Shown here in pieces: positions 4,305 to 60,800 of a stretch of 64,000 nucleotides of DNA (position 1 is the stretch's first letter; each line of letters begins with the position of its first letter). The notes beneath the pieces were generated by a model. That model was not told the DNA's origin, searched no databases, and worked only from the letters and a program-made list of their open reading frames with translations. A program made the position numbers and the translations under genes. The DNA is from Candidatus Kaiserbacteria bacterium (lineage in GTDB: Bacteria; Patescibacteriota; Minisyncoccia; Phycocordibacterales; UBA918): contig CP064968.1 in NCBI GenBank assembly GCA_016699245.1, forward strand, positions 15,654 to 79,653, in the 5' to 3' direction.

Positions 4305-4630
4305 CCTCAAAACTCTTATTCGGCACCACTTTATATCTGCACGCATAAGCCCCAGAATTAAAACCTAAAGGTTTTAATTCTGGGGCTTTGCTCCGCTCGC
4401 CCAATGAGGGCTGTGCGAGGCATCTCTAAAGTGGCGCACTCAACAAGTTTTGATACGAAGATGCACATGAACAAATCCGTTGACGCACAACTTTTGCAGC
4501 GCCTCGCGCAAGGCCACGCAGGCCGAGCGGAGCAAAAACCTAGAATACCAAATGCGAAGCATTTGGTATTCTAGGTTTTATGCGTGCGGGGCAAAAGTTC
4601 GTGCCGAGAAAGGATTTGTGGTTTTTGAAC
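4305..4630 (+). mobile_element. MITE-like / structured repeat element, copy A (family with long terminal inverted repeats; other copies at 14626, 22907, 57068)
   Basis: The left arm CACGCATAAG-hairpin-CTTTGCTCCGCTC and right arm GAGCGGAGCAAA-hairpin-TTTATGCGTGC are reverse complements. The outer TIRs (CAAAACTCTTATTCGGCACCAC... and ...AACCACAAATCCTTTCTCGGCACGAACTTTTGC) are shared with the other copies. The central CGTTGACGCAC...CTCGCGCAAGGCC block is conserved in three of four copies. Confidence 0.5.
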
Positions 4631-4705
4631 TTGTACGCAAATAAGTCTTTGGGGATGGGCGATACCGGTTGCCAAATAAAGCAATTCTGGTATAGTGTCA
4701 CGACT

Positions 4706-8002: not shown

Positions 8003-8075
8003 GCCGTCTTAGCTCAGTTGGTAGAGCAACGGTTTTGTAAACCGTAGGTCCTCGGTTCAAACCCGAGAGACGGCT
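8003..8075 (+). tRNA. tRNA-Thr (anticodon UGU)
   Basis: Folded by hand into a cloverleaf. Acceptor GCCGTCT/AGACGGC; D-arm TAGCTCAGTTGGTAGAGC is identical to the E. coli tRNA-Thr D-arm; anticodon stem ACGGT/ACCGT with loop TTTGTAA (anticodon TGT); T-arm CTCGG-TTCAAAC-CCGAG; discriminator T at 8075. Confidence 0.8.
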
Positions 8076-8077
8076 CA

Positions 8078-8419
8078 AAGAAAAGAAATAGAAGTAGTCT
8101 TAGCGAAGGTGGTGGAGTTAAAACAGTGCGGGGCACTGTTTTAAAGTTTTGTAAACCGTAGGTCCTCGGTTGACCAATTTTTCTTACGACCTTAAGGGAG
8201 TTAGAAAAATGGAAATGTCCTTGTGGCGCAAACCCGAGAGACGGCTCAAAGAAAAGAAATAGAAGTAGTCTTAGCGAAGGTGGTGGAGTTAAAACAGTGC
8301 GGGGCACTGTTTTAAAGTTTTGTAAACCGTAGGTCCTCGGTTGACCAATTTTTCTTACGACCTTAAGGGAGTTAGAAAAATGGAAATGCCCTTGTGGTGC
8401 AAGCCCGAGAGACGGCTCA
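8078..8419 (+). repeat. Two tandem 171-bp units of disrupted tRNA-Thr-derived sequence (pseudo-tRNA repeats) plus a truncated third unit start
   Basis: Units 8078-8248 and 8249-8419 are nearly identical. Each has a diverged tRNA 5' half (GTCTTAGCGAAGGTGGTGGAG), a 19-nt palindromic insert (AACAGTGCGGGGCACTGTT) replacing the anticodon-stem 5' strand, an exact copy of the tRNA anticodon loop to T-stem (TTTTGTAAACCGTAGGTCCTCGGTT), a 57-nt insert in the T-loop, and an exact tRNA 3' end (CAAACCCGAGAGACGGCTCA) followed by AAGAAAAGAAATAGAAG. Confidence 0.6.
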
Positions 8420-11485: not shown

Positions 11486-12208
11486 ATGACACCGAGTAAC
11501 GGACACCAGCACCCACTTACGCAGATGATTGCAGAAATTAATAGTATTTTTGCAGAGATTGGTTTTGTGTTTGCAGAAGGTCCTGAGGCAGAGCGTGAGC
11601 ACTACAATTTTGATAGGCTCAATGTCCCCAAGGATCACCCCTCACGCGATATGCAAGATACGTTTTGGTTTCGCCGTAGTGATGTGAAGGAACCTACTGT
11701 GCTCCGCACACACACTTCTGCTGTACAGGGTCGCTTTATGGAAGCACATACTCCCCCCATGCGTGCTATTGCGTTGGGGAAAGTGTTTCGTAATGAGGCA
11801 ACCGACGTCACTCACGAAGCACAGTTTTATCAGTTTGAAGGATTTTACGTGGACAAAGAGGTGCACCTCGGACACTTGAAGGGCACACTTGAATACTTTT
11901 TCGGAAAGTTCTTCAGAGGGGATGTGGAGGTACGATTCCGTCCCAGTTTCTTTGGTTTTGTGGAGCCGGGTGTCGAGGTGGATATGCGTCTCAACTCAGG
12001 TAACTCAAAACTCGTGGGGAAGTGGATTGAGATTATGGGTGCCGGTATGATTCATCCTAATGTACTCCTTGATTCTGGCATTGACCCCTTACTATACTCA
12101 GGCTTCGCCTTTGGTATGGGGCTTGATCGACTCGGCTTTATGAAATACGAGTTTGATGATATCCGCACACTCTATAGTGGTGACCTCAGATTTGTAAATC
12201 AGTTTTAG
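11486..12208 (+). CDS. pheS: Phenylalanine--tRNA ligase alpha subunit (short form, catalytic core only)
   Basis: Class II aaRS motifs 1-3 are present (HPSRDMQDTFW; FRNEATDVTHEAQFYQFEG; GFAFGMGLDRL). Confidence 0.9.
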   Translation: MTPSNGHQHPLTQMIAEINSIFAEIGFVFAEGPEAEREHYNFDRLNVPKDHPSRDMQDTFWFRRSDVKEPTVLRTHTSAVQGRFMEAHTPPMRAIALGKVFRNEATDVTHEAQFYQFEGFYVDKEVHLGHLKGTLEYFFGKFFRGDVEVRFRPSFFGFVEPGVEVDMRLNSGNSKLVGKWIEIMGAGMIHPNVLLDSGIDPLLYSGFAFGMGLDRLGFMKYEFDDIRTLYSGDLRFVNQF

Positions 12209-12258
12209 AAATAGAAAATAGAAGATATAAAATATAAAATAGAAAATAGAAGATATGG
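12209..12258. repeat. Left inverted-repeat arm of the four-helix-bundle gene cassette (ATAGAAAATAGAAGATA units)
   Basis: AAATAGAAAATAGAAGATATAAAATATAAAATAGAAAATAGAAGATATGG immediately after the pheS stop. Its reverse-complement partner is at 12630-12670. Confidence 0.6.
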
Positions 12259-12632
12259 AAAATAAAAAAGAAGTGTCACAGACAGAGAAGGAAGTTTTTA
12301 AGATGAGACTTATTGATTTTTCTGTTTCAACTATGAAACTGTGTCATGATTTTCGCAAAGATCCCACACTTTGGTCGTTGAGTGATCAACTGATTAGAAG
12401 TGCAACTTCGATTGGAGCAAATATTAATGAAGCACAGGGAGCAAATTCTAAAAAAGATTTTGCAAATTATTTTCAAATCGCACTTAAATCAGCTAGAGAA
12501 ACTCGATATTGGATACAAGTAATAGAGCGTTATAACAGTAAGATAAAAGATATCGAGTTCGTACGTAATGAAAATGAAGCGCTCATAAATATCTTGCATG
12601 CTTCATTAAAAACCCTGAGGTCGAAACTGTAA
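12255..12632 (+). CDS. Four-helix-bundle protein (23S rRNA intervening-sequence protein family)
   Basis: SDQLIRSATSIGANINEAQGANSKKDFANYFQIALKSARETRYWIQVI matches the conserved core of the 23S-rRNA-IVS / four-helix-bundle family (GANIAEG...KDF..FL.IA.GS..E). It is inserted between pheS and pheT. Confidence 0.7.
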   Translation: MENKKEVSQTEKEVFKMRLIDFSVSTMKLCHDFRKDPTLWSLSDQLIRSATSIGANINEAQGANSKKDFANYFQIALKSARETRYWIQVIERYNSKIKDIEFVRNENEALINILHASLKTLRSKL

Positions 12633-12670
12633 TATCTTCTATCTTCTATTTTCTATCTTATATTTCTCAT
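12630..12670. repeat. Right inverted-repeat arm of the four-helix-bundle cassette
   Basis: TAATATCTTCTATCTTCTATTTTCTATCTTATATTTCTCAT is the reverse complement of the AGATAGAAAATAGAAGATAGAAGATATT-type units of the left arm. Confidence 0.6.
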
Positions 12671-14625: not shown

Positions 14626-14965
14626 AAGAACTCTTTCTCCGTACCACTACGGCCATCTAAAATCCTTTCTCGGCACGAACTTGAAAAAACCACGCATAAA
14701 CCTAAAACCATCAATCCTTCGGATTGGTGGTTTTAGGTTTTGCTATGCTCGCGCTGTGTGCGCTCCGCAATGCTTTTTTAAAGTTGTGCCTCAACGGATT
14801 TTTACGTATATGCCATTAAGAACTCGTTGACGCACTGCTTTTATGCAGCCTCGCGCAAGGCCCCACAGGCCGAGCGGAGCAAAGACCCAAAACTCACATT
14901 CTACGAATGTGAGTTTTGGGTTTTATGCGTGCTGAAGAAAAGCAGTGCGGAAAAAGAGTTCTGTC
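14626..14965 (+). mobile_element. MITE-like / structured repeat element, copy B
   Basis: Same architecture as copy A: left TIR AGAACTCTTTCTC...AAATCCTTTCTCGGCACGAAC...CACGCATAA, central CTCAACGGATTTTT...CTCGTTGACGCAC...CTCGCGCAAGGCC, right arm GAGCGGAGCAAAG-hairpin-TTTATGCGTGC-TGAAGAAAAGCAGTGCGGAAAAAGAGTTCTGTC. Confidence 0.5.
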
Positions 14966-15114
14966 GCCAACATACAGAGTTCGCGACGAGAGGGAATTTC
15001 CTCCATTTTTCTCGCCAATTCCCACGCATTTTTGCCACAGGGGGAAGGGGGACAAAATGGCTTAAATTTGCTATACTTTTGGCTATTATTGGGTATTTAT
15101 AAATCGACAAAAAC

Positions 15115-17208: not shown

Positions 17209-17233
17209 ATGACGGACATCGGATGTCCGTCAT
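17209..17233. repeat. REP-like 25-bp perfect palindrome ATGACGGACATCGGATGTCCGTCAT (copy 1 of 4)
   Basis: A perfect palindrome 7 bp after the gyrB stop. Identical copies at 39401, 39964 and (one centre mismatch) 40151 surround the RAYT gene. Confidence 0.7.
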
Positions 17234-22906: not shown

Positions 22907-23309
22907 ACAGAACTCTTTCTCTGAACTCTTTTCCTAAAATCCTTTCTCGTCACGAACTTTTGCCCCGCACGCATAAGGCCTGAGAACTAAAAGCAATGCT
23001 TTTAGTTCTCAGGCCTTTGCTCCGCTCGCCCAATGAGGGCTCCGCGAGGCGCTGCAAAAGTTGTAACTCAACGGATTTTAGTAAAAGAACTCGTTGACGT
23101 ACTGCTTTTATTCAGCCTGCCTAGATTCTTCTTATGAGCGAAGCAAATTAGAAAATCTTGGCTGTCGCCACATGCTCTCACAATGCAATGTGGTGACCAG
23201 GACGACCTCAGGGGAGGAGCGGAGCAAAGACCCAAAACCCGCATTCGTAGAATGAGGTTTTGGGTCTTATGCGTGCTGAAGAAAAGCAGTGCGGAAAAAG
23301 AGTTCTGTC
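22907..23309 (+). mobile_element. MITE-like / structured repeat element, copy C
   Basis: Left TIR GACAGAACTCTTTCTC...AAATCCTTTCTCGTCACGAACTTTTGCCCCGCACGCATAAG, right TIR CTTATGCGTGCTGAAGAAAAGCAGTGCGGAAAAAGAGTTCTGTC (its reverse complement). Internal hairpin arms and a central CTCAACGGATTTTAG...CTCGTTGACGTAC block are conserved with copies A, B and D. Confidence 0.5.
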
Positions 23310-23355
23310 TCCAATCTGTGCGATTCTAACCGAAAAAGAATTTTAGAGTTTGCGA

Positions 23356-39377: not shown

Positions 39378-39400
39378 AAAAGAGAAATAAAATTGATAAA

Positions 39401-39435
39401 ATGACGGACATCGGATGTCCGTCATTGTCCGTCAT
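39401..39435. repeat. REP-like palindrome copy 2 (plus 10-bp partial tandem duplication TGTCCGTCAT)
   Basis: ATGACGGACATCGGATGTCCGTCAT-TGTCCGTCAT, 24 bp after the giant-gene stop and downstream of the RAYT gene end. Confidence 0.7.
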
Positions 39436-39463
39436 TTTTGTATGCTTCACACGCGCACACGCA

Positions 39464-40138
39464 TTACTCAAGGGTTACACCATCAAGGTGAAGTATGTTA
39501 AATTTTTTGAGGTGCGACTGAAATGCTTTTGTATAGCCTGCTGAGCCTCCAAAATATTTGAGAAAAAATGTTCGGTCAGTAACTGAACCAAAATTACTTT
39601 TGCCACTGTAGTCGAGATGACTACTCCATTTGTATTTTGAAAGTAATTCCTCGACGTGTTGTGCAGAAGGAATTTCTCCCTCGCGCCATTTTGGTGTGGT
39701 GAGGTCAAGTGGATTGAGGTGAATATAAAAGGGGAGATACATGAAGTGTGCATCTGAGGTGATACGTATGGATTTGTACTTACCTTGAAAGAGTCCACCA
39801 GAGCGTTCATATCGCTCATTAAAATACTTTGCGTACCCCATATTTATCTTTTTCATAAAGAGAGACACCCCACCTTCAACGAGAGGGGAGAGCATGAGGT
39901 GGTAGTGGTTTGGCATGAGACAAAAGAAGTGTATCTGCACCAGCCGTTCACCTTCACCTGCTAATGACGGACATCGGATGTCCGTCATTTTTGTGTTTCG
40001 TCGATGGTTGGTGTCGCTTCTTCCTTGAACGTTAAACGTATATAAATCATGAATAAATCTGGCATAATCCCTTGAATCAAGGAATATCGTACGCTTCTCA
40101 ACTCCTCTGTTGAGTACGTGAAAAAACTCTGTATGCAT
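39464..40138 (-). mobile_element. REP-associated tyrosine transposase (RAYT; IS200/IS605-like Y1 HuH transposase) gene
   Basis: 224 aa with FFHVLNRGVEKRTIF, the HuH motif (LMPNHYHLML), the catalytic-Tyr region (GLFQGKYKSIRI) and YIHLNP...WSSH, all matching the RayT/COG1943 pattern. The gene is flanked on both sides by the 25-bp palindrome and carries one copy in-frame inside the ORF. Confidence 0.75.
39964..39988. repeat. REP-like palindrome copy 3, located inside the RAYT coding sequence
   Basis: A perfect ATGACGGACATCGGATGTCCGTCAT copy. On the minus strand it is translated in-frame as ..KMTDIRCPSL.. within a ~25-aa segment absent from typical RAYT homologues (between the FL..L helix and the HuH motif). 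Confidence 0.65.
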
Positions 40139-40150
40139 ACTGATATTCTA

Positions 40151-40186
40151 ACACACATGACGGACATCCGATGTCCGTCATGTGTG
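40151..40186. repeat. REP-like palindrome copy 4 (extended: ACACACATGACGGACATCCGATGTCCGTCATGTGTGT)
   Basis: An extended 37-bp palindrome with one central mismatch, lying exactly between the dnaE stop (40187-40189) and the RAYT start (40138). Confidence 0.65.
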
Positions 40187-44570: not shown

Positions 44571-45470
44571 ATGGCAAATCGGCACCTTTCAAGATCAATC
44601 GTTCTTCAATCACTCTTTGAGTGGGATTTAAATAGTATAGAAAAAAGCGCAATGGTGGAGACCCTCATGCGCAACGTCGAAGAATTTGCACCCAACAAGT
44701 CCGATACGCCATTCATGGAGAAGCTTCTTGATGGTGTACTCCAAAAGCAATCTGAGTTAGACCTCATCATCGAGAAGGCTGCACCCGAATGGCCTATCGA
44801 TAGAATCGCTCCTGTAGATCGCAATATTCTCCGTCTCGGTCTCTATGAACTGCTTTTCTCAGACCGCAATGAAGTACCCGCAAAAGTCGCTATCAATGAA
44901 GCCATTGAACTTGCGAAGCAGTTTGGTGGAGACAATTCAAGCCGTTTTGTAAACGGTGTACTTGGTGCCGTATATAAAGAAATCGGGGAGCCAGGCAAGG
45001 AAGAAAGTTCCAAGATTAAAAAGAAACGCGAAATTCCTTTTGAGCAGATGGACATTGAGCGTCTCGCAGGGGCTGTCGTGTATGCAATTCACGAGGGTAC
45101 GATGTACCTGGCCCTCGTCCACGATATCTTTGGTCATTGGACGCTCTCAAAGGGGAAACTTGTTGAAGGTGAAGAAATTGAAGCAGGCACAGCGCGTTCA
45201 ATTAAAGACGAAATAGGTCTCACCGTTGAACTTGAGACCGAACTTGGTAAAAATGAATATGTTGCGTCGCATCCTGAAAAGGGCAAGGTGCGCAAGCAAG
45301 TCGTATACTACCTCGCACGTGCGCCATACGAAAATCTCGCCCTCGAAGAAAAGGGAGGACTCGATGCGGCACAGTGGTTTAAGGTTGCCGATATTCTCGA
45401 ACTTAACTTTTATGAAGATATTTTGCCCATTGTTACCAAGGCAGTCACGGTACTCGTGAGTAGGAAGTAG
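44571..45470 (+). CDS. nusB: NusB transcription antitermination factor fused to a C-terminal NUDIX hydrolase domain
   Basis: NusB core (SRSIVLQSLFEWDL...PIDRIAPVDRNILRLGLYELLF...PAKVAINEAIELAKQFGGDNSSRFVNGVL) followed by a Nudix fold with a Nudix-box-like segment (GKLVEGEEIEAGTARSIKDEIGL). Confidence 0.65.
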   Translation: MANRHLSRSIVLQSLFEWDLNSIEKSAMVETLMRNVEEFAPNKSDTPFMEKLLDGVLQKQSELDLIIEKAAPEWPIDRIAPVDRNILRLGLYELLFSDRNEVPAKVAINEAIELAKQFGGDNSSRFVNGVLGAVYKEIGEPGKEESSKIKKKREIPFEQMDIERLAGAVVYAIHEGTMYLALVHDIFGHWTLSKGKLVEGEEIEAGTARSIKDEIGLTVELETELGKNEYVASHPEKGKVRKQVVYYLARAPYENLALEEKGGLDAAQWFKVADILELNFYEDILPIVTKAVTVLVSRK

Positions 45471-45545
45471 GATGTTGAATAGAAAATAGAAAATAGAAGA
45501 TAGAAGATAGAAAATAGAAAATAGTGAATAGAAAATAGAGCCTGA
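45471..45545. repeat. Tandem heptamer array (ATAGAAA / ATAGAAG units, about 10 copies)
   Basis: GATGTTGAATAGAAAATAGAAAATAGAAGATAGAAGATAGAAAATAGAAAATAGTGAATAGAAAATAGAG. The same units make up the inverted repeats flanking the four-helix-bundle cassette and the spacer after each tRNA-derived unit. Confidence 0.6.
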
Positions 45546-45603
45546 AATACTCTCGATATTACCTGCTATTCCCAATTTTACATATTTCTGCTACCCTACG
45601 CCC

Positions 45604-54458: not shown

Positions 54459-54559
54459 CACTTCTGTAAATCTTCGTCGCGCGGTTATTCGTTTGTTTAA
54501 ATGGGGGAGTTGTGTAAGACTATTTGTATGATTAAGGGTATTGATTATACGGGAATAAC

Positions 54560-54950
<391 letters not shown>

Positions 54951-54962
54951 CTAGTCATCATC

Positions 54963-55637
54963 ATGCATTTTCACGTCATAACCTTATTTCCCGAAATCTG
55001 CGAGGCATATACCGATTCGTCTATTCTTGGTCGTGCGCAAAAGACGGAGAAGGGAAAAGGTGCGAAGCATCGTGGAAAGAAAATCGAGGTGACGTACTAT
55101 AATCCTCGTGAGTACACGACCGATAAGCACCACAAAGTGGATGACCGTCCTTATGGCGGGGGCCCAGGAATGGTGATGTACGCAGAGCCCATACTCAAAG
55201 CGTGGGAAAAGGCAGTGGGGCGAAAAAAGGATAAGGGGAAAGTGAAGACACTCATCATGTCACCCCGCGGTGCGAAGTTTGATACCGCAATGGCAAAGAA
55301 ACTTGCAGGGAAGTATGAGCACCTCGTACTTATCTCAGGCAGGTACGAAGGTATTGATTCGCGTGTCCTTCAGATACTGAATGCAGAGGAAGTCTCTGTG
55401 GGTGATTATGTGCTCACCGGAGGAGAACTTCCCGCACTCGCTATCATTGACTCCATTGCCCGCCAAGTCCCCGGAGTCCTTGGTACCTTTGAATCTCTCG
55501 AAGAAGAACGTATCTCAAGTGGGGAAATGTACACCCGCCCCGAGATCCTCACATACAAGAAAAAAGAATACAAAGTCCCACCGGTCTTTCTCTCGGGGGA
55601 TCACAAGGTGATACAGGAGAGAAAAAAAAGTAATTAA
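54963..55637 (+). CDS. trmD: tRNA (guanine37-N1)-methyltransferase
   Basis: MHFHVITLFPEI... is the TrmD N-terminus. The SAM-binding SPOUT knot motifs (SPRGAKF; ISGRYEGIDSRV; VLTGGELPALAIIDSIAR) are present. Confidence 0.9.
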   Translation: MHFHVITLFPEICEAYTDSSILGRAQKTEKGKGAKHRGKKIEVTYYNPREYTTDKHHKVDDRPYGGGPGMVMYAEPILKAWEKAVGRKKDKGKVKTLIMSPRGAKFDTAMAKKLAGKYEHLVLISGRYEGIDSRVLQILNAEEVSVGDYVLTGGELPALAIIDSIARQVPGVLGTFESLEEERISSGEMYTRPEILTYKKKEYKVPPVFLSGDHKVIQERKKSN

Positions 55638-55773
55638 ATTTGATAAAACACTTCAAGGGCTGCGGGGTTTGGTGTGGGGTGATACGGTATGCACAGTAGT
55701 CTGTCTCCACCTCGTCATTGATGATTTGCCTTTCCGTACTATACTTACTGTATTAACTCTATAACTATTAGAT

Positions 55774-56955
55774 ATGGACAATGCACTAGTGGAGTATGTT
55801 GCGAACCGTATACGAGCCGGTGTTACAAAGGCAGAAGTGCAAGAAGAACTGCTTGCCGTCGGTTGGTCTGAAGAGGAAAGTGCGCATGCATACAAATCAG
55901 CGCTTGTCGTATTCGGTACACCAGTTCCCACTGAAGGTAATCGTCAAATATTTACGAAGAAATCTTCGACGGTTGATGTGGTGGTCAATTTTTTCTCTTT
56001 CATTCTTCTCGGTATCACCGCCACATCTCTTGGAACGCTTTTCTACCAAGTCATCAATAAGTTCATAAAAGACCCACTCGATGCCACCGTCCATTATTGG
56101 TATGATTCTTCTTGGCAGACCGATGTTATTCACTATGCAATTGCCGCACTCCTCATTGCGTACCCGCTCTACTTTTTCGCCATGCACATCTGGTTTAAGA
56201 AATTCAGAGAAGATGAAGGACGTTCTGAATCAAAACTCACCAAGTGGCTTACATACCTCGTGTTACTCGTTGCTGCGGTCACGGTAGTCGGAGATCTTAT
56301 TACTGTCGTATACAAGATGTTGCAGGGAGAAGCATCAGCACGTTTCTTCTTGAAAGCACTCACTATCCTTGTTATTGCAGGAATGATATTTGCGTTCTAT
56401 TATCTGGAACGAAAGAAAGTCCAGTATCAGTTAGATATACCTCGTTCAATCTTTAAGTCCCTCGGTATGTTCACAACAGGTCTAGTGACTGTGGCGATTG
56501 TTCTCGGTTTCTTCGCGGGCGGTTCTCCGAAGACAGAGCGAAATCGGACGTTTGATGTGACCCGTGCAAGCGACCTCACTAATCTTGTAAATTGTGTTTC
56601 TTCCTATGCGATTACTTATGAAGTACTTCCCGCAACACTTGATGATCTTAAAAATTCACGCGATTATTATTGCAATGCATCGATGACCGACCCAGAAACA
56701 GGCACAGCATACACATACCGTATTGTGACACCAAGTACTATTCGAGGCACTGAGCGAGTGGGTGAGTTTGAACTTTGTGCTACATTTGCACTCCAATCAG
56801 AGAAAGCAAATGGCAATTCATACTATTATGGTAACAGCGAACAATGGTCTGAACATACAGCGGGCCTCAATTGCGATACAATGGATGCTCGAATTGGTGA
56901 CGCGTACCCCATGCCAACAGGAACAACCGGTGCACCTACTAATTGGAATTATTAA
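55774..56955 (+). CDS. Hypothetical polytopic membrane protein with Cys-containing C-terminal extracytoplasmic domain
   Basis: 393 aa with a soluble N-terminal ~55 aa, 4-5 TM helices and a C-terminal domain with four Cys; no family recognised. Confidence 0.4.
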   Translation: MDNALVEYVANRIRAGVTKAEVQEELLAVGWSEEESAHAYKSALVVFGTPVPTEGNRQIFTKKSSTVDVVVNFFSFILLGITATSLGTLFYQVINKFIKDPLDATVHYWYDSSWQTDVIHYAIAALLIAYPLYFFAMHIWFKKFREDEGRSESKLTKWLTYLVLLVAAVTVVGDLITVVYKMLQGEASARFFLKALTILVIAGMIFAFYYLERKKVQYQLDIPRSIFKSLGMFTTGLVTVAIVLGFFAGGSPKTERNRTFDVTRASDLTNLVNCVSSYAITYEVLPATLDDLKNSRDYYCNASMTDPETGTAYTYRIVTPSTIRGTERVGEFELCATFALQSEKANGNSYYYGNSEQWSEHTAGLNCDTMDARIGDAYPMPTGTTGAPTNWNY

Positions 56956-57067
56956 TGTATTTCTACAGATGATACACTCGCTTGACCTTCGGTAAAGGAA
57001 ATGTCTCAGGATATTTCTCGTGAGTATGATGCTCAGGAAGTGATGTTTAGTGAGTCAATCTCGAGTA

Positions 57068-57562
57068 CCTCAAAACTCTTATTCGATACCACAACAAGAA
57101 CCACAAATCCTTTCTCGGCACGAACTTTTGCAGGGCACGCATAAGGCATGAAAACTAAAAGCAATGCTTTTAGTTTCCAGGCCTTTGCTCCGCTCCTCCC
57201 CTGAGCGACTTACAGTCGCTGTTCAGGTTGTATGATATTTTTCGTAAACTCAAAATATCGACAACCTCTTGCGAAAGTCTCCCAGACTTTCTCACGTCCG
57301 CGAGGCCCTGCAAAAGTTGTGCCTCAACGAATTTGTTCACTTTGTAAGCTTAGAGCAAAACTCGTTGAGGTACCACTTTAGATATGCACCACAGAGAGTA
57401 CATCCATTTTTATAGTCGCCGTTCGGCTCCTTAAAAATTAGGTGCCTCGCGCAAGGCCACACAGGCCGAGCGGAGCAAAGCCCCGAAAATAAAATCCAAA
57501 GGATTTGTTTTTCGGGGCTTATGCGTGCAGATATAAAGTGGTGCCGAAAAAGAGTTTTGACA
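57068..57562 (+). mobile_element. MITE-like / structured repeat element, copy D (largest copy, 495 bp)
   Basis: Left TIR CCTCAAAACTCTTATTCGATACCAC...AACCACAAATCCTTTCTCGGCACGAACTTTTGCAGGGCACGCATAAG. The right TIR CTTATGCGTGCAGATATAAAGTGGTGCCGAAAAAGAGTTTTGACA is the reverse complement of copy A's left end. Internal arms and the central CCTCAACGA...TCGTTGAGG hairpin are conserved. Confidence 0.5.
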
Positions 57563-57863
57563 CCGACATTCCCAAAAGAGTGGGGAATACCAAAATCCAC
57601 AGGTAACTGTTGACCTTTTTGAGCGGGTCTGGTATTATTCCGGCACGCAATAGATCTCGGATGAGTCATGGATGTGCGATGTTTGGAGGGGGGTCATATA
57701 CAGCGCTGTATATGAAAGAGCACCAGGGAACCTAAGTTCCGTAATCACGACCACGTGATGTACACATTACTCGCACAGTAAAAACGACATTAGAACAACG
57801 CACTTTGGGTGCGGTTATTTTGTTGTTATGCCGTTTTTGCTTTTATACATAACACGTATACGT

Positions 57864-60800
57864 ATGTCTAACGCACCACAGCACGGAGGAGCCTCAGTGG
57901 GAATGCTTCCAAAGAAGCGATTCCAAAATTTTCGTGACGCACGTGTGTCACTGCCTGACCTCGTTGAACCACAACGATTGTCATACACCAACTTCATTGA
58001 GGTAGGACTCAAGGAAGTCTTTAAGGAGTTTTCACCTATCAGTGACTATTCTGATAAGAAATTCGACCTCATTTTCAAAAAGTATGAATTGGGTCAGCCA
58101 AAGACCACTCCCGAGCACGCACGTGAAAACAAACTCACGTACGAGGCACCACTCCGCGCACTCGTTGCGCTCAACAACAAGACCTTTGGTGGTGAGAAGG
58201 AGCAAGAGATTTTTCTCGCCGACATTCCGGTGATGACCGAAAATGGTACCTTCATCATCAATGGTGTTGAGCGCGTTATCGTGCCACAACTCGCCCGTTC
58301 ATACGGTATTTTCTTTACCACAAATGAATCAAAGGGCCGTACCTTCTTTGGTGCAAAAATCATTCCTGCTCGCGGTGCGTGGGTAGAGATTGAGTCTGAG
58401 GCTGATGGGGTGATTTATGTAAAAATAGACCGCAAGCGCAAGTTCCCTATTTCATCCCTTTTCCGTGTACTTGGTGTGACGAGCGACAAAGACATGCTCA
58501 AGCTCTTTAAGGGTATTGCTCATGCTGATGAGTACATCACCCGTACCCTTGCAAAGGATCCAGCAAAGCAGGCTGATGATTCATACATCGAAATCTACCG
58601 TCGCCTTCGTGACGGTGACCTTGCCACAGTCGACAACGCAAAGGAGTTTATTAACTCCATCTTTAGCACCACTCGCTACGACCTTTCAGAAATTGGTCGC
58701 CATCACTTCAACGAGCGTTTCGGACTTTCCACAGATGCAAAGGCAGATGCACAGCGCATTGTGTCTGTAGAAGACTTGGTGACTATCATCAAAAACATCA
58801 TTGAGCAAAATCACACCCCCGGTGCTATTGCCGATGACATCGACCATCTCGGATTCCGCCGTGTACGTTACTTTGGAGAGATGCTCCAACAGCGTATTCG
58901 TGTGGGTATGACTCGCGTGAAGCGCAACATACAAGACCGCATGTCGACGATTGAGGCAGAAACATCGCTCCCGATGTCACTCATCAATCCCCGACCACTC
59001 CAAGCAGCGATTAAGGAGTTTTTCACCACAAACCAACTTTCACAGTTTATGCAACAGCAAAACATGCTTGCAGAACTTGAAGGACTCCGTACGCTTTCCG
59101 CACTCGGTCCCGGTGGACTCACCCGTGAGCGTGCAGGCTTTGAGGTACGTGACGTACACACCTCACACTATGGCCGCCTCTGTCCTATTCACACACCAGA
59201 AGGTCCAAACATTGGTCTTATTCTTCGTCTTGCGATGTACGCACGCGTCAATCGTTTCGGTATTATTGAGACTCCATACGCAAAGGTAGAGAAAGGTGTG
59301 GTGACCGATGAAATTATCTACCTAAACGCTCACGAAGAAGAGCGCTACCACATTGCACACGCTGCTATTGAAGTTGATGATGCAGGGAAGATAAAGCCCG
59401 ATATCGTCGAAGCGCGTTTTAAGGGCGAGCCAGTCATTGTGCCAAAAAAGAATATTGAGTTTGTCGACATCGCTACCAATCAAGCCTTCTCAGTAGCGAC
59501 TTCAATGATTCCATTCATCAATCACGATGACGCCAACCGCGCACTCATGGGTAGTAACATGCAGAAGCAGGCAACTCCCTGCATCATTCAGGAAGCACCA
59601 CTCGTCGCCACCGGTGTCGAGGAACTCTCTGCACGTGATACGGGCCGTATGATTACCGCCCTCGAAGCAGGTGAAGTAGTGGAAGTAGACGCTCGTCACG
59701 TCGTCGTAAAGAATAAAGATGGCAAGAAGAAGGAATACACACTGACGACGTTCCAGCGCACCAACGACTTCTCTGCCTTCTACCACATCGCATCCGTCTC
59801 AGTAGGAGATAAGGTAAAGCGTGGCGACGTACTCGCAAATACTTCATCGACTGACACGGGCCAAATGGCACTCGGACAAAACATGCTCGTCGCCTTTATG
59901 AGTTGGTCAGGTGCCAACTACGAGGATGCCATCATTATTTCTGAACGTGTTGTAAAGGATAGTAAGTTCTCAACCATTCACCTCGATGAACTCGAAGTCT
60001 CCGTGCGTGACACAAAACTTGGCCCTGAGGTCACCACGCCAGATATTCCAAATGTGAGTGAATTGAAACTCCGCAATCTTGATGAAGAAGGAATCATTCG
60101 TGTTGGTGCAGAAGTGCGCCCTGGAGACATTCTCGTGGGTAAGGTGACGCCAAAGGGCGAGACACAACTTACTCCTGAGGAACGCCTCCTCCGTTCAATC
60201 TTTGGAGAAAAAGCAAAAGATGTGAAAGATACTTCCCTTCGCCTTGAAGCAGGAAAGCGTGGTCGCATTATTGGCGTGAAAATCTTCACCCGTGAAAATG
60301 GTGACCAACTCGAAAGCGGTGTTATCAAGCGTATTCATATCACCGTCGCGCAGGTACGTAATGTATCCGTCGGAGATAAACTCGCAGGACGTCACGGTAA
60401 CAAGGGTGTTATCTCACGTATTCTTCCTGAGGAAGATATGCCATACACTGAAGACGGCAAGCCTGTTGATGTGATTCTCACACCACTCGGCGTACCTTCA
60501 CGTATGAACCTCGGACAGATTCTCGAACTGCACCTCGGTATGGCGGCGAATACGCTCGGCTACCAGGCTATTGTGCCTCCATTTGCAGGAGCGACTGAAG
60601 ATCATGTAAAGACCGAACTCGTTGCCGCTGGATTCCCTTCAGATGGAAAACTGTGGCTCCGTGATGGTCGCACCGGTGACACCTTTGCACAGCGTATTTC
60701 TGTGGGCTACATGTACATCTTGAAACTGCACCACATGGTAGAAGACAAGATCCACATGCGCTCAATTGGCCCCTACTCACTCATCACCCAGCAGCCACTC

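Follow-up and report, generated by a model that had tools for sequence, protein, structure and literature searches.

What kind of element is repeated between the genes of a 64,000-nucleotide (nt) stretch of a Candidatus Kaiserbacteria genome (contig CP064968.1), and in what form does it work? Genomes of the candidate phyla radiation (CPR, or Patescibacteria) are ~1 Mb in size and are thought to be poor in mobile DNA. In the stretch, called the window below and numbered from its first nucleotide, an earlier note had described four related intergenic elements, here copies A to D, and had left two options for them: a miniature inverted-repeat transposable element (MITE), or a dispersed structured non-coding RNA or regulatory module. 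A part of each option stood. The copies belong to a dispersed, structured, non-coding repeat but not to a textbook MITE, since they show no target-site duplication and their arms covary; one strand has a conserved fold, but neither a promoter or terminator of its own nor a constant position relative to genes was found. On balance, we lean toward a lineage-specific, non-coding and non-autonomous family of structured, REPIN-like repeats, whose working form would be a folded single strand.

The Repeat Unit Is a Half-element

Direct reading of the window and counts of motifs confirmed the four elements. As shown by these counts, GAGCGGAGCAAAG (≤2 mismatches) occurs nine times in the window (1.3 expected) and CTTATGCGTGC (≤1 mismatch) eight times (1.1 expected), while the 21-nt end motif AAATCCTTTCTCGGCACGAAC and GGTGCCGAAWAAGAGTTYTG (≤3 mismatches each) occur four and five times, with 0 and 0.02 expected, respectively; none of 100 shuffles gave counts as high as those observed. 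The copies had been placed correctly, but they are longer than described once the tails of end motifs are included, reaching over approximately 4305–4655 (A), 14626–14995 (B), 22907–23344 (C) and 57068–57565 (D). Each is 350–500 bp and non-coding. There are four in 64 kb and more in relatives, and this one repeat family takes up ~1.7 kb, or roughly 2.7%, of the window. The open reading frames (ORFs) that overlap the copies look spurious, since all lie inside the repeat and gene calling of the window accepted none of them.

The left end of copy A had been read as the reverse complement of the right end of copy D, and this match was recovered (4307–4385 against 57482–57560; 79 nt, 81% complementary), together with that of the opposite ends (4578–4627 against 57095–57144; 50 nt, 92% complementary). 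A central block, by contrast, had been said to lie always on the same strand, whereas each copy contains it on both: 4468–4508 is 93% complementary to 57299–57339, and 4478–4545 matches 57421–57488 directly. The ends are indeed inverted and share a 20-nt motif, but this motif varies in number, the termini are fuzzy and the paired arms covary; they look like terminal repeats because each copy is an inverted pair of self-folding units. Three internal hairpins had been counted, and there are more. Since other genomes mostly carry halves alone, the repeat unit is the half-element of ~150 nt and not the whole copy.

The Unit Forms a Covarying Y Shape

We aligned 18 units (alignment A3), four of them with an internal insert spliced out. 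On one strand, the unit takes the shape of a Y, with a closing helix, a three-way junction and two hairpins. The closing helix, of ~25–30 bp, is formed by both ends of the unit. Its outer part reads AAATCC:GGATTT, CAAAACT:AGTTTTG or AGAACTC:GAGTTCT, and its inner part, among others, ACAACTTTTG:CAAAAGTT, CCACTTTA:TAAAGTGG or CACTGCTTTT:AAAAGCAGTG; between the two parts lies a conserved internal loop, CGTTGAG opposite GTGCCGARAAAG. The three-way junction (GCCTCGCGCAAG / GAGCGGA) bears a 4-bp hairpin (GGCC, GCGC or GCCC:GGGC) and a long hairpin of ~27 bp, in which GAGCGGAGCAAAG, a variable hairpin of 16–18 bp and CTTATGCGTGC follow one another. At its base, the long hairpin does not vary (GCAAAG / CTT-A-TGC, including a bulged A), whereas its upper 16–18 bp change freely yet stay paired. 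The mirrored arms around variable hairpins reported earlier are present, and these hairpins differ from copy to copy and are still paired.

Covariation, which had been claimed for the hairpins, proved to be very strong. The proposed pairs were formed in 91.2% of 981 cells in the 18 units, compared with 74.9% in shuffles, and pairing dropped to ≤49% when the partners were slid by one to three columns. Both sides had changed in 34 of the 55 pairs and the covariation score was 0.45 (0.16 in shuffles), figures that count sequences sharing ancestry and not independent events. No shuffle of 500 reached any of the observed measures of pairing or covariation. In a test that used no alignment, the outer strand of the same unit was the best or second-best duplex partner of the inner strand in all 15 units (mean energy −26.4 kcal/mol for cognate and −13.8 kcal/mol for non-cognate duplexes), and the observed mean was not matched in 20,000 permutations. 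Within one subfamily, near-identical hairpins differ by fully compensated pairs, as seen for A_R and L001, B_R and L084_BR, and C_L and L084_BL, where A_R is the right unit of copy A, and so on, and L numbers denote loci of other assemblies.

One Specific Strand Is the Folded One

The two strands of the unit are not equivalent. The strand that reads 5'-inner...GAGCGGAGCAAAG-hairpin-CTTATGCGTGC...outer-3' contains 45 G·T and 6 A·C pairs (28 and 6 without one invariant pair), and purine-purine mismatches are far more numerous than pyrimidine-pyrimidine mismatches. This sense strand is also more stable than its complement in 17 of the 18 units, by a mean of 10 kcal/mol with RNA parameters. The variable hairpin alone gives no signal (4 against 3); the G·U excess appears with the whole unit only. 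Because units occur on both genomic strands, an asymmetry that follows the unit would not result from a mutation bias linked to replication or transcription. These observations identify one specific strand as the folded one.

Doublets Join an Alpha and a Beta Unit

Two types of unit differ in their ends. T1 (GTTCGTGCCGAGAAAGGATTT) and T2 (GGTGCCGAAAAAGAGTTTTG) are variants of one 20-nt motif, which within the window is confined to these elements. Alpha units carry T1 in the closing helix, followed by T2 as a second motif, and beta and beta-prime units carry T2 in the closing helix. Outward from the units, T1 and T2 alternate with a period of ~33 nt in one to four copies. All of the eight doublets (copies A to D, two in L084/L085, one in L005 and a decayed one in L089) consist of one alpha and one beta unit, arranged head to head with their 5' ends at the center. 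On the assumption that both types are equally frequent, chance would make all eight mixed in fewer than 1 in 100 cases.

Inserts are confined to junction positions. The Z module of unit D_L (57206–57294, minus strand) is an 89-nt structured insert with covarying hairpins of its own at the three-way junction; L085_L and L005_R are its other hosts, and the Z module of D_L is 99% identical to that in the L084/L085 element downstream of gyrB. Z also occurs free of any unit, namely in L090 and, downstream of rnc, at locus L003 of CAZMYZ. Unit C_R holds a 92-nt insert (23114–23205, plus strand) between the inner strand of the closing helix and the three-way junction, which recurs in L084_BR, the right unit of the B-site element of strain L084. 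A 54-nt insert found in D_R only (57390–57443, plus strand) lies between the inner closing-helix strand and GCCTCGCGCAAGG. The inner modules of copies C and D do not match, because the halves are independent units with optional inserts; a chromosomal inversion between C and D was considered as the cause and rejected, since CAZMYZ is collinear across D.

Pieces resembling the Z module were also met outside the family. Downstream of the tRNA-Thr gene (8003–8400), two tandem units of 171 nt each repeat the 3' half of the tRNA, from the anticodon arm to the acceptor end, split by an insert of ~57 nt. The same arrangement is found in L087 (3330–3790) and L090 (1–330), there with Z-module-like pieces inserted, and may be the scar of repeated integration into the tRNA gene or a tRNA-derived repeat.

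Units Are Gained, Lost and Recombined among Close Relatives

The family is restricted to a narrow clade of CPR/Patescibacteria, consisting of the genome of the window and a few close relatives that bear assorted CPR labels. When one genome per species was scanned for the pattern, the element turned up in only three metagenome-assembled genomes (MAGs), all labelled Saccharibacteria. In metagenomes, the scan returned 68 loci, of which only L044 was real, the other 67 being chance matches without the hairpin. The element is real and no artefact, since it is present in independent assemblies of different projects.

Further copies and empty sites, by which the earlier note had proposed to check its reading, were found in relatives, where sites are filled in some and empty in others. 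Contig CAZMYZ010000019 (L001 and L003; rpoB 90% identical in nucleotides) is collinear with the window from 45.4 to 59.3 kb. Single units lie upstream of rnc, a place without a unit in the window, and upstream of rpoB, the place of doublet D in the window. Contig CAZMYZ010000004 (L087; gyrB 94% identical in amino acids) is collinear with ~4.7–26 kb and is free of units over 22 kb; at site B it has a small opposite-strand gene, and site C is an 83-nt spacer with a canonical bidirectional terminator, ACAAAACCCCGCGGCCTACGGCCGCGGGGTTTTGT. In L084/L085/L086 (gyrB 98%), site B is occupied by a doublet whose left half, center and left flank are unlike those of the window and resemble copy C. These assemblies have an extra doublet downstream of gyrB, missing in the window, with a left half and Z module almost identical to D_L. 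L089 (gyrB 95%) has a decayed doublet downstream of gyrB and none upstream, and in L090 (gyrB 91%) site B is empty, with a spacer of 97 nt. In all, presence or absence differs at four sites (upstream of rnc, B, C and downstream of gyrB) among the window, L084/L085, L089, CAZMYZ and L090. No unit was found within 10 kb on either side of rpoB in three outgroup genomes (L077–L083; rpoB 82% identical in nucleotides; ~70 kb in all), in which homology upstream of rpoB ends at the −35 box.

The copies cluster by hairpin subfamily and not by locus. Upstream of rpoB in CAZMYZ, L001 occupies the position that D_R has in the window, yet the two hairpins differ along their whole length, whereas L001 and A_R are 92% identical; L003 and C_L share 90% identity. 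These results demonstrated that units are gained, lost and recombined, with halves swapped, between close relatives at the scale of strain and species divergence.

Layout and Surroundings of the Four Copies

Copy A (4305–4655) is an inverted doublet of a beta unit on the left (minus strand) and an alpha unit on the right (plus strand), located between a peptidoglycan-hydrolase-like gene (stop 4242) and the rpmE promoter (4669–4696). Oriented by end type, it is flipped relative to B, C and D. In the left unit, A_L (4307–4453, minus), the T2 end motif is outermost (4309–4326), followed by CTTATGCGTGC (4339–4349), the variable hairpin (~4350–4385), GAGCGGAGCAAAG (4386–4398), the small hairpin GCCC/GGGC and the inner strand of the closing helix, which runs to 4453. 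In the right unit, A_R (4470–4619, plus), the inner closing-helix strand starts at 4470, and GAGCGGAGCAAAA (4525–4537), the variable hairpin (4537–4577), TTATGCGTGC (4578–4587) and the T1 end motif (4601–4618) follow, with a degenerate second end motif extending to ~4655.

Copy B (14626–14995) has an alpha unit on the left (14658–14803, minus) and a beta-prime unit on the right (14818–14963, plus), with an extra end motif on the left (14627–14644) and a degenerate one reaching ~14995 on the right; the pheT stop (14596) precedes it and the gyrB promoter (15049–15077) follows it. Copy C (22907–23344), likewise alpha on the left (22935–23080, minus) and beta-prime on the right (23085–23307, plus), has extra end motifs at 22909–22926 and 23327–23344 and separates two convergent genes, one for a CopG-like antitoxin (stop 22862) and thrS (stop 23356). 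Copy D (57068–57565) pairs an alpha unit (57103–57336, minus) with a beta unit (57356–57559, plus), has an extra end motif on the left side (57072–57089) and is bordered by a DUF5671 gene (stop 56955) and the rpoB promoter (57610–57638). All four copies are intergenic, as the earlier note had stated, and its placement of A, B and D near rpmE, gyrB and rpoB was likewise correct, the copies ending 14–54 nt before the predicted promoters of these genes.

The interval between trmD and rpoB that precedes copy D (55640–57068, and the same slot in L001, L077, L079 and L081) contains a different gene in each relative, including DUF5671, a small membrane protein, a PemK toxin pair, a minus-strand ORF and Peptidase_M23. 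It is a hot spot of gene exchange, with or without the repeat element. On the other side of the rpoB promoter, a leader of ~230 nt up to the start codon (57640–57900) is conserved at 82% nucleotide identity of rpoB and contains paired-looking segments. It gave no Rfam match and may be an undescribed leader RNA.

Promoters, Terminators and Candidate Enzymes

An outward promoter carried by the element was considered and rejected, since the promoters lie outside the element at a variable distance, and the promoter and leader of rpoB are also present in relatives without the element. A scan found no promoter-like or terminator-like consensus inside the units or at their ends. The main hairpins contain no intrinsic terminator (hairpin and T-run) and run into CTTATGCG or CTTTGCTC. 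Canonical terminators are used elsewhere in the window, but after the genes preceding A, C and D none was found. Copy C occupies the exact site of the canonical bidirectional terminator of CAZMYZ, and the L085 doublet adjoins an intact canonical terminator.

The genes next to units are mutually unrelated (cell-wall hydrolase, pheT, toxin-antitoxin, DUF5671, HTH, HSP20, surface protein, HD-domain and AcrB-like). The sense strand of the left units of A, B and D is antisense to all neighboring genes, and these units are conserved as well as the right units. Among single units, L001 and L002 start 8–15 nt past the stop codon of a co-directional gene and L044 starts ~13 nt past a co-directional ORF whose function is unknown; L003 points the same way as the gene before it, though it lies ~110 nt downstream, and L004 is antisense to both neighbors. 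Genes for RNase III and RNase R lie within the window.

No transposase adjoins the units in the six loci searched, and no autonomous relative, with the same ends and a transposase gene, was seen in ~150 kb of in-clade sequence. The window has a single transposase-like ORF (39464–40138, minus strand), which scores 30 bits with Pfam Y1_Tnp and 35.5 bits with the NCBIfam model of the REP-associated tyrosine transposase (RAYT), below its cutoff of 80 bits.

This ORF has repeats of another kind around it. In the interval 39398–40181, a perfect 25-nt palindrome, ATGACGGACATCGGATGTCCGTCAT, flanks the RAYT- or IS200-like Y1 ORF and interrupts it in frame. A fourth palindrome lies directly after the gyrB stop (17209–17233), and the palindrome is also found in L087. 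The palindrome and the Y1 ORF look like a small REP/RAYT system separate from the repeat family described here.

Comparison with Known Elements

We found no known family to which the element belongs. At the gathering threshold, Rfam (release 15) matched only the tRNA-Thr in the whole window, and on the elements it gave sub-threshold matches only, essentially all of them to generic miRNA-type hairpins, also at relaxed thresholds. Nothing matched in plasmid and phage collections. Among viral contigs, three sequences fitted a gapped pattern, apparently by chance, and none fitted the end motif; no convincing viral match was obtained, and no description of this family was found in the literature on MITEs and repeats in Saccharibacteria, Patescibacteria and CPR. 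The units resemble the medium-sized structured RNAs of Rfam in size and level of covariation, but unlike them match no family at threshold.

In the Neisseria Correia elements, 100–500 bp are bounded by defined 26-bp inverted ends with a TA duplication; these elements are intergenic, often adjacent to promoters and variable between strains, and can serve as terminators or RNase III targets. Our elements differ in their covarying arms and strand-specific fold, and neither a duplication nor a sharp end was found for them. The BOX elements of Streptococcus pneumoniae are modular, with a variable number of one module, a stable predicted structure, an intergenic location and an unknown mobilizing enzyme. 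Our elements share the modular build, stable predicted fold and intergenic location, but differ in sequence and host, which are unrelated, and in arrangement, BOX modules being direct (A-Bn-C) and ours an inverted self-folding pair. Integron attC sites and the forked-hairpin attP of CTX phage are folded single-strand sites, conserved in structure and not in sequence, with one active strand. The unit is like them in its conserved hairpin base with a bulge and an internal loop, its variable terminal stem and its one favored strand; unlike them, it comes with no integrase, no cassette ORFs and no RYYYAAC/GTTRRRY boxes.

The closest parallel is with REPINs, which replicate as inverted doublets of REP sequences and form a hairpin as single-stranded DNA or RNA, with compensatory changes and with singlets as remnants (PMC3116915), which are mobilized by RAYT (TnpA-REP) Y1 transposases, as has been proposed (PMC3116915; PMC8266576). 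Like REPINs, our elements are intergenic and non-coding, form hairpins as inverted doublets, show compensatory changes, occur also as remnant-like single units and comprise several subfamilies per genome, and the genome of the window encodes a RAYT-like protein. Unlike REPINs, they have a unit of ~150 nt with a three-way junction in place of a palindrome of 20–40 nt, their doublets are always alpha with beta, and they bear periodic 20-nt arrays at both ends; and the RAYT-like ORF is flanked by ATGACGGACATCGGATGTCCGTCAT and not by these units, as it would be in a REP-RAYT pair. The family is a new and unusually elaborate relative of the REPIN-, MITE- and BOX-type intergenic repeats of bacteria.

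Some other resemblances were tried. Those to a DnaA box, CIRCE, parS and the attC box, judged by eye, did not hold; GCACGCATAA is faintly like the XerC arm of dif, over 7–9 bases only. TIGR-Tas arrays were rejected, having a different architecture and a linked Tas gene that is absent here.

Other Features of the Window

Simple repeats of the AATAGAAAATAGAAGATA type, inverted, at 12189–12292 and 12633–12665 flank a gene for a 23S-rRNA-intervening-sequence protein (12255–12632) between pheS and pheT; in L087, L084 and L090, pheS and pheT are adjacent and this gene is absent. The same type of repeat recurs at 45464–45553, upstream of rnc, where CAZMYZ has a unit. Between 26015 and 39377, two huge ORFs (1211 and 3150 amino acids) with internal repeats of ~2 kb and ~130 nt, raised G+C content and strongly negative GC skew are probably repetitive surface proteins; a CAZMYZ ORF of 3128 amino acids starts at the matching place. 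Long runs of G, C and A (one of ~40 G, for example) at 54530–54963 are probably an artefact, from assembly or base calling, in a long-read MAG; the collinear CAZMYZ contig passes straight from 54530 to 54963. Between 61092 and 64000, rpoC is split into several ORFs (one of 568 amino acids, others in other frames), where relatives have a single gene of 1215–1218 amino acids; the breaks are likely frameshift errors of assembly.

Discussion

The units are most likely selfish repeats and not a gene. As a REPIN-like family, they would be copied or moved as DNA through a folded single-stranded intermediate, recognized by a structure-specific enzyme much as REPs and REPINs are by RAYT (HUH/Y1) transposases. 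Recognition of structure would account for pairing, loops and junction being kept while the sequence of the helices drifts, and correction of mismatches within stems, an idea that comes from quasi-palindrome correction, would yield many compensated changes between near-identical copies. Single-stranded DNA is a likelier form of the fold than RNA, because the left units of A, B and D are antisense to their neighbors yet equally kept, and because no promoter was found. Since A, C and D have no canonical terminator, the very stable hairpins probably also stop or insulate transcription between genes as a side effect, a secondary role that the replacement of a terminator at site C makes plausible.

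Several observations weigh against a REPIN-like family. Compared with any REP, the unit is five times as large and has a much more complex build. In the loci seen, the element has no linked enzyme; the RAYT-like ORF scores weakly and is bounded by the other palindrome. At copies A to D and at single units, no target-site duplication, for which the earlier note had proposed to look at copy boundaries, and no conserved target sequence or sharp end could be defined; exact junctions are not definable because the flanking spacers are too diverged. No direct insertion or excision was seen in the relatives compared, which amount to only ~150 kb of in-clade sequence, and the swapping of halves could be ordinary homologous recombination without transposition. 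Covariation, whose counts include shared ancestry, and strand asymmetry are equally compatible with a functional RNA. As a bolder and tentative proposal, the Y unit could be the recognition structure of an undescribed CPR system of single-stranded DNA mobility, or else a new, abundant structured RNA that replaces intrinsic terminators. In such a mobility system, alpha and beta would be the two ends, and an enzyme of the HUH or recombinase type would read the loop, the junction and the bulged base.

The main rival is a cis-acting RNA module, in which the very stable Y fold, transcribed with the 3' end of the preceding gene, would terminate transcription, block 3' exonucleases or offer a site for RNase III, an RNA-binding protein would recognize the conserved loops, and mobility would be secondary or absent. 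Strong covariation and the excess of G·U over A·C on one strand are what it predicts, and it fits the single units that begin shortly after co-directional genes (L001, L002, L044 and, at a greater distance, L003), copy C at the site of a terminator in a relative, the want of any other terminator at A, C and D when canonical ones occur elsewhere in the genome, and the RNase III and RNase R genes of the window. It does not explain why the antisense left units of A, B and D are equally preserved or why L004 opposes both neighbors; the hairpins lack a U-tract, no promoter consensus is present, the L085 doublet sits beside an intact terminator, and filled and empty sites at 98% gyrB identity together with a narrow distribution suit a selfish element better. 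We regard this module as rather unlikely. Small RNA genes acting in trans, each a Y-shaped RNA of ~150 nt with its own promoter, would agree with the covariation, the conserved loops and junction, the inserts at the junction only and the strand asymmetry. Such genes are very improbable, given that unit boundaries show no promoter-like or terminator-like site, that units begin a few bases past stop codons, that copy number and location vary between near-identical strains and that Rfam holds no relative; moreover, the obligatory inverted pairing of alpha with beta has no obvious meaning for RNA genes.

Two further explanations place recognition in double-stranded DNA. If the family were a classical MITE moved by cut and paste, the doublet would derive from an insertion sequence by deletion, the 20-nt motifs at its asymmetric ends, two on one side and one opposite, would bind a transposase, and the folding would be incidental. 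The size of 350–500 bp, the lack of coding capacity, the inverted ends built of a repeated motif, the two end types of which each copy has one, the intergenic position and the presence/absence polymorphism all agree with this. We nevertheless hold a MITE to be distinctly doubtful, since target-site duplications and sharp termini are missing, end motifs number from one to four, the paired arms covary between subfamilies where one binding sequence should be held, half-elements bear the full conserved structure alone, and no locus viewed has a transposase with such ends; the strand asymmetry is likewise unexpected under double-stranded recognition. The 20-nt arrays with their ~33-bp period might instead be protein-binding sites, such as iterons or sites for a regulator or nucleoid protein upstream of strong promoters, as the periodic arrays of one to four copies and the position of A, B and D directly upstream of the rpmE, gyrB and rpoB promoters suggest. 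This seems to us highly improbable: arrays are also directed toward 3' gene ends, the genes on either side of C converge, the sites are dispensable in close relatives, and covarying helices and strand asymmetry are left unexplained.

Among these explanations, the REPIN-like family of folded single strands is the one we favor. In genomes thought to hold little mobile DNA, one family makes up ~2.7% of the window and turns over between strains with 98% identical gyrB proteins. Its one-strand structure and conserved loops offer a handle for finding the enzyme or protein that reads the element. The element is also a convenient marker by which to type strains, and it is likely to cause breaks in assembly and rearrangements in these MAGs. 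Should it take the place of terminators, it would bear on the evolution of operon boundaries in reduced genomes.

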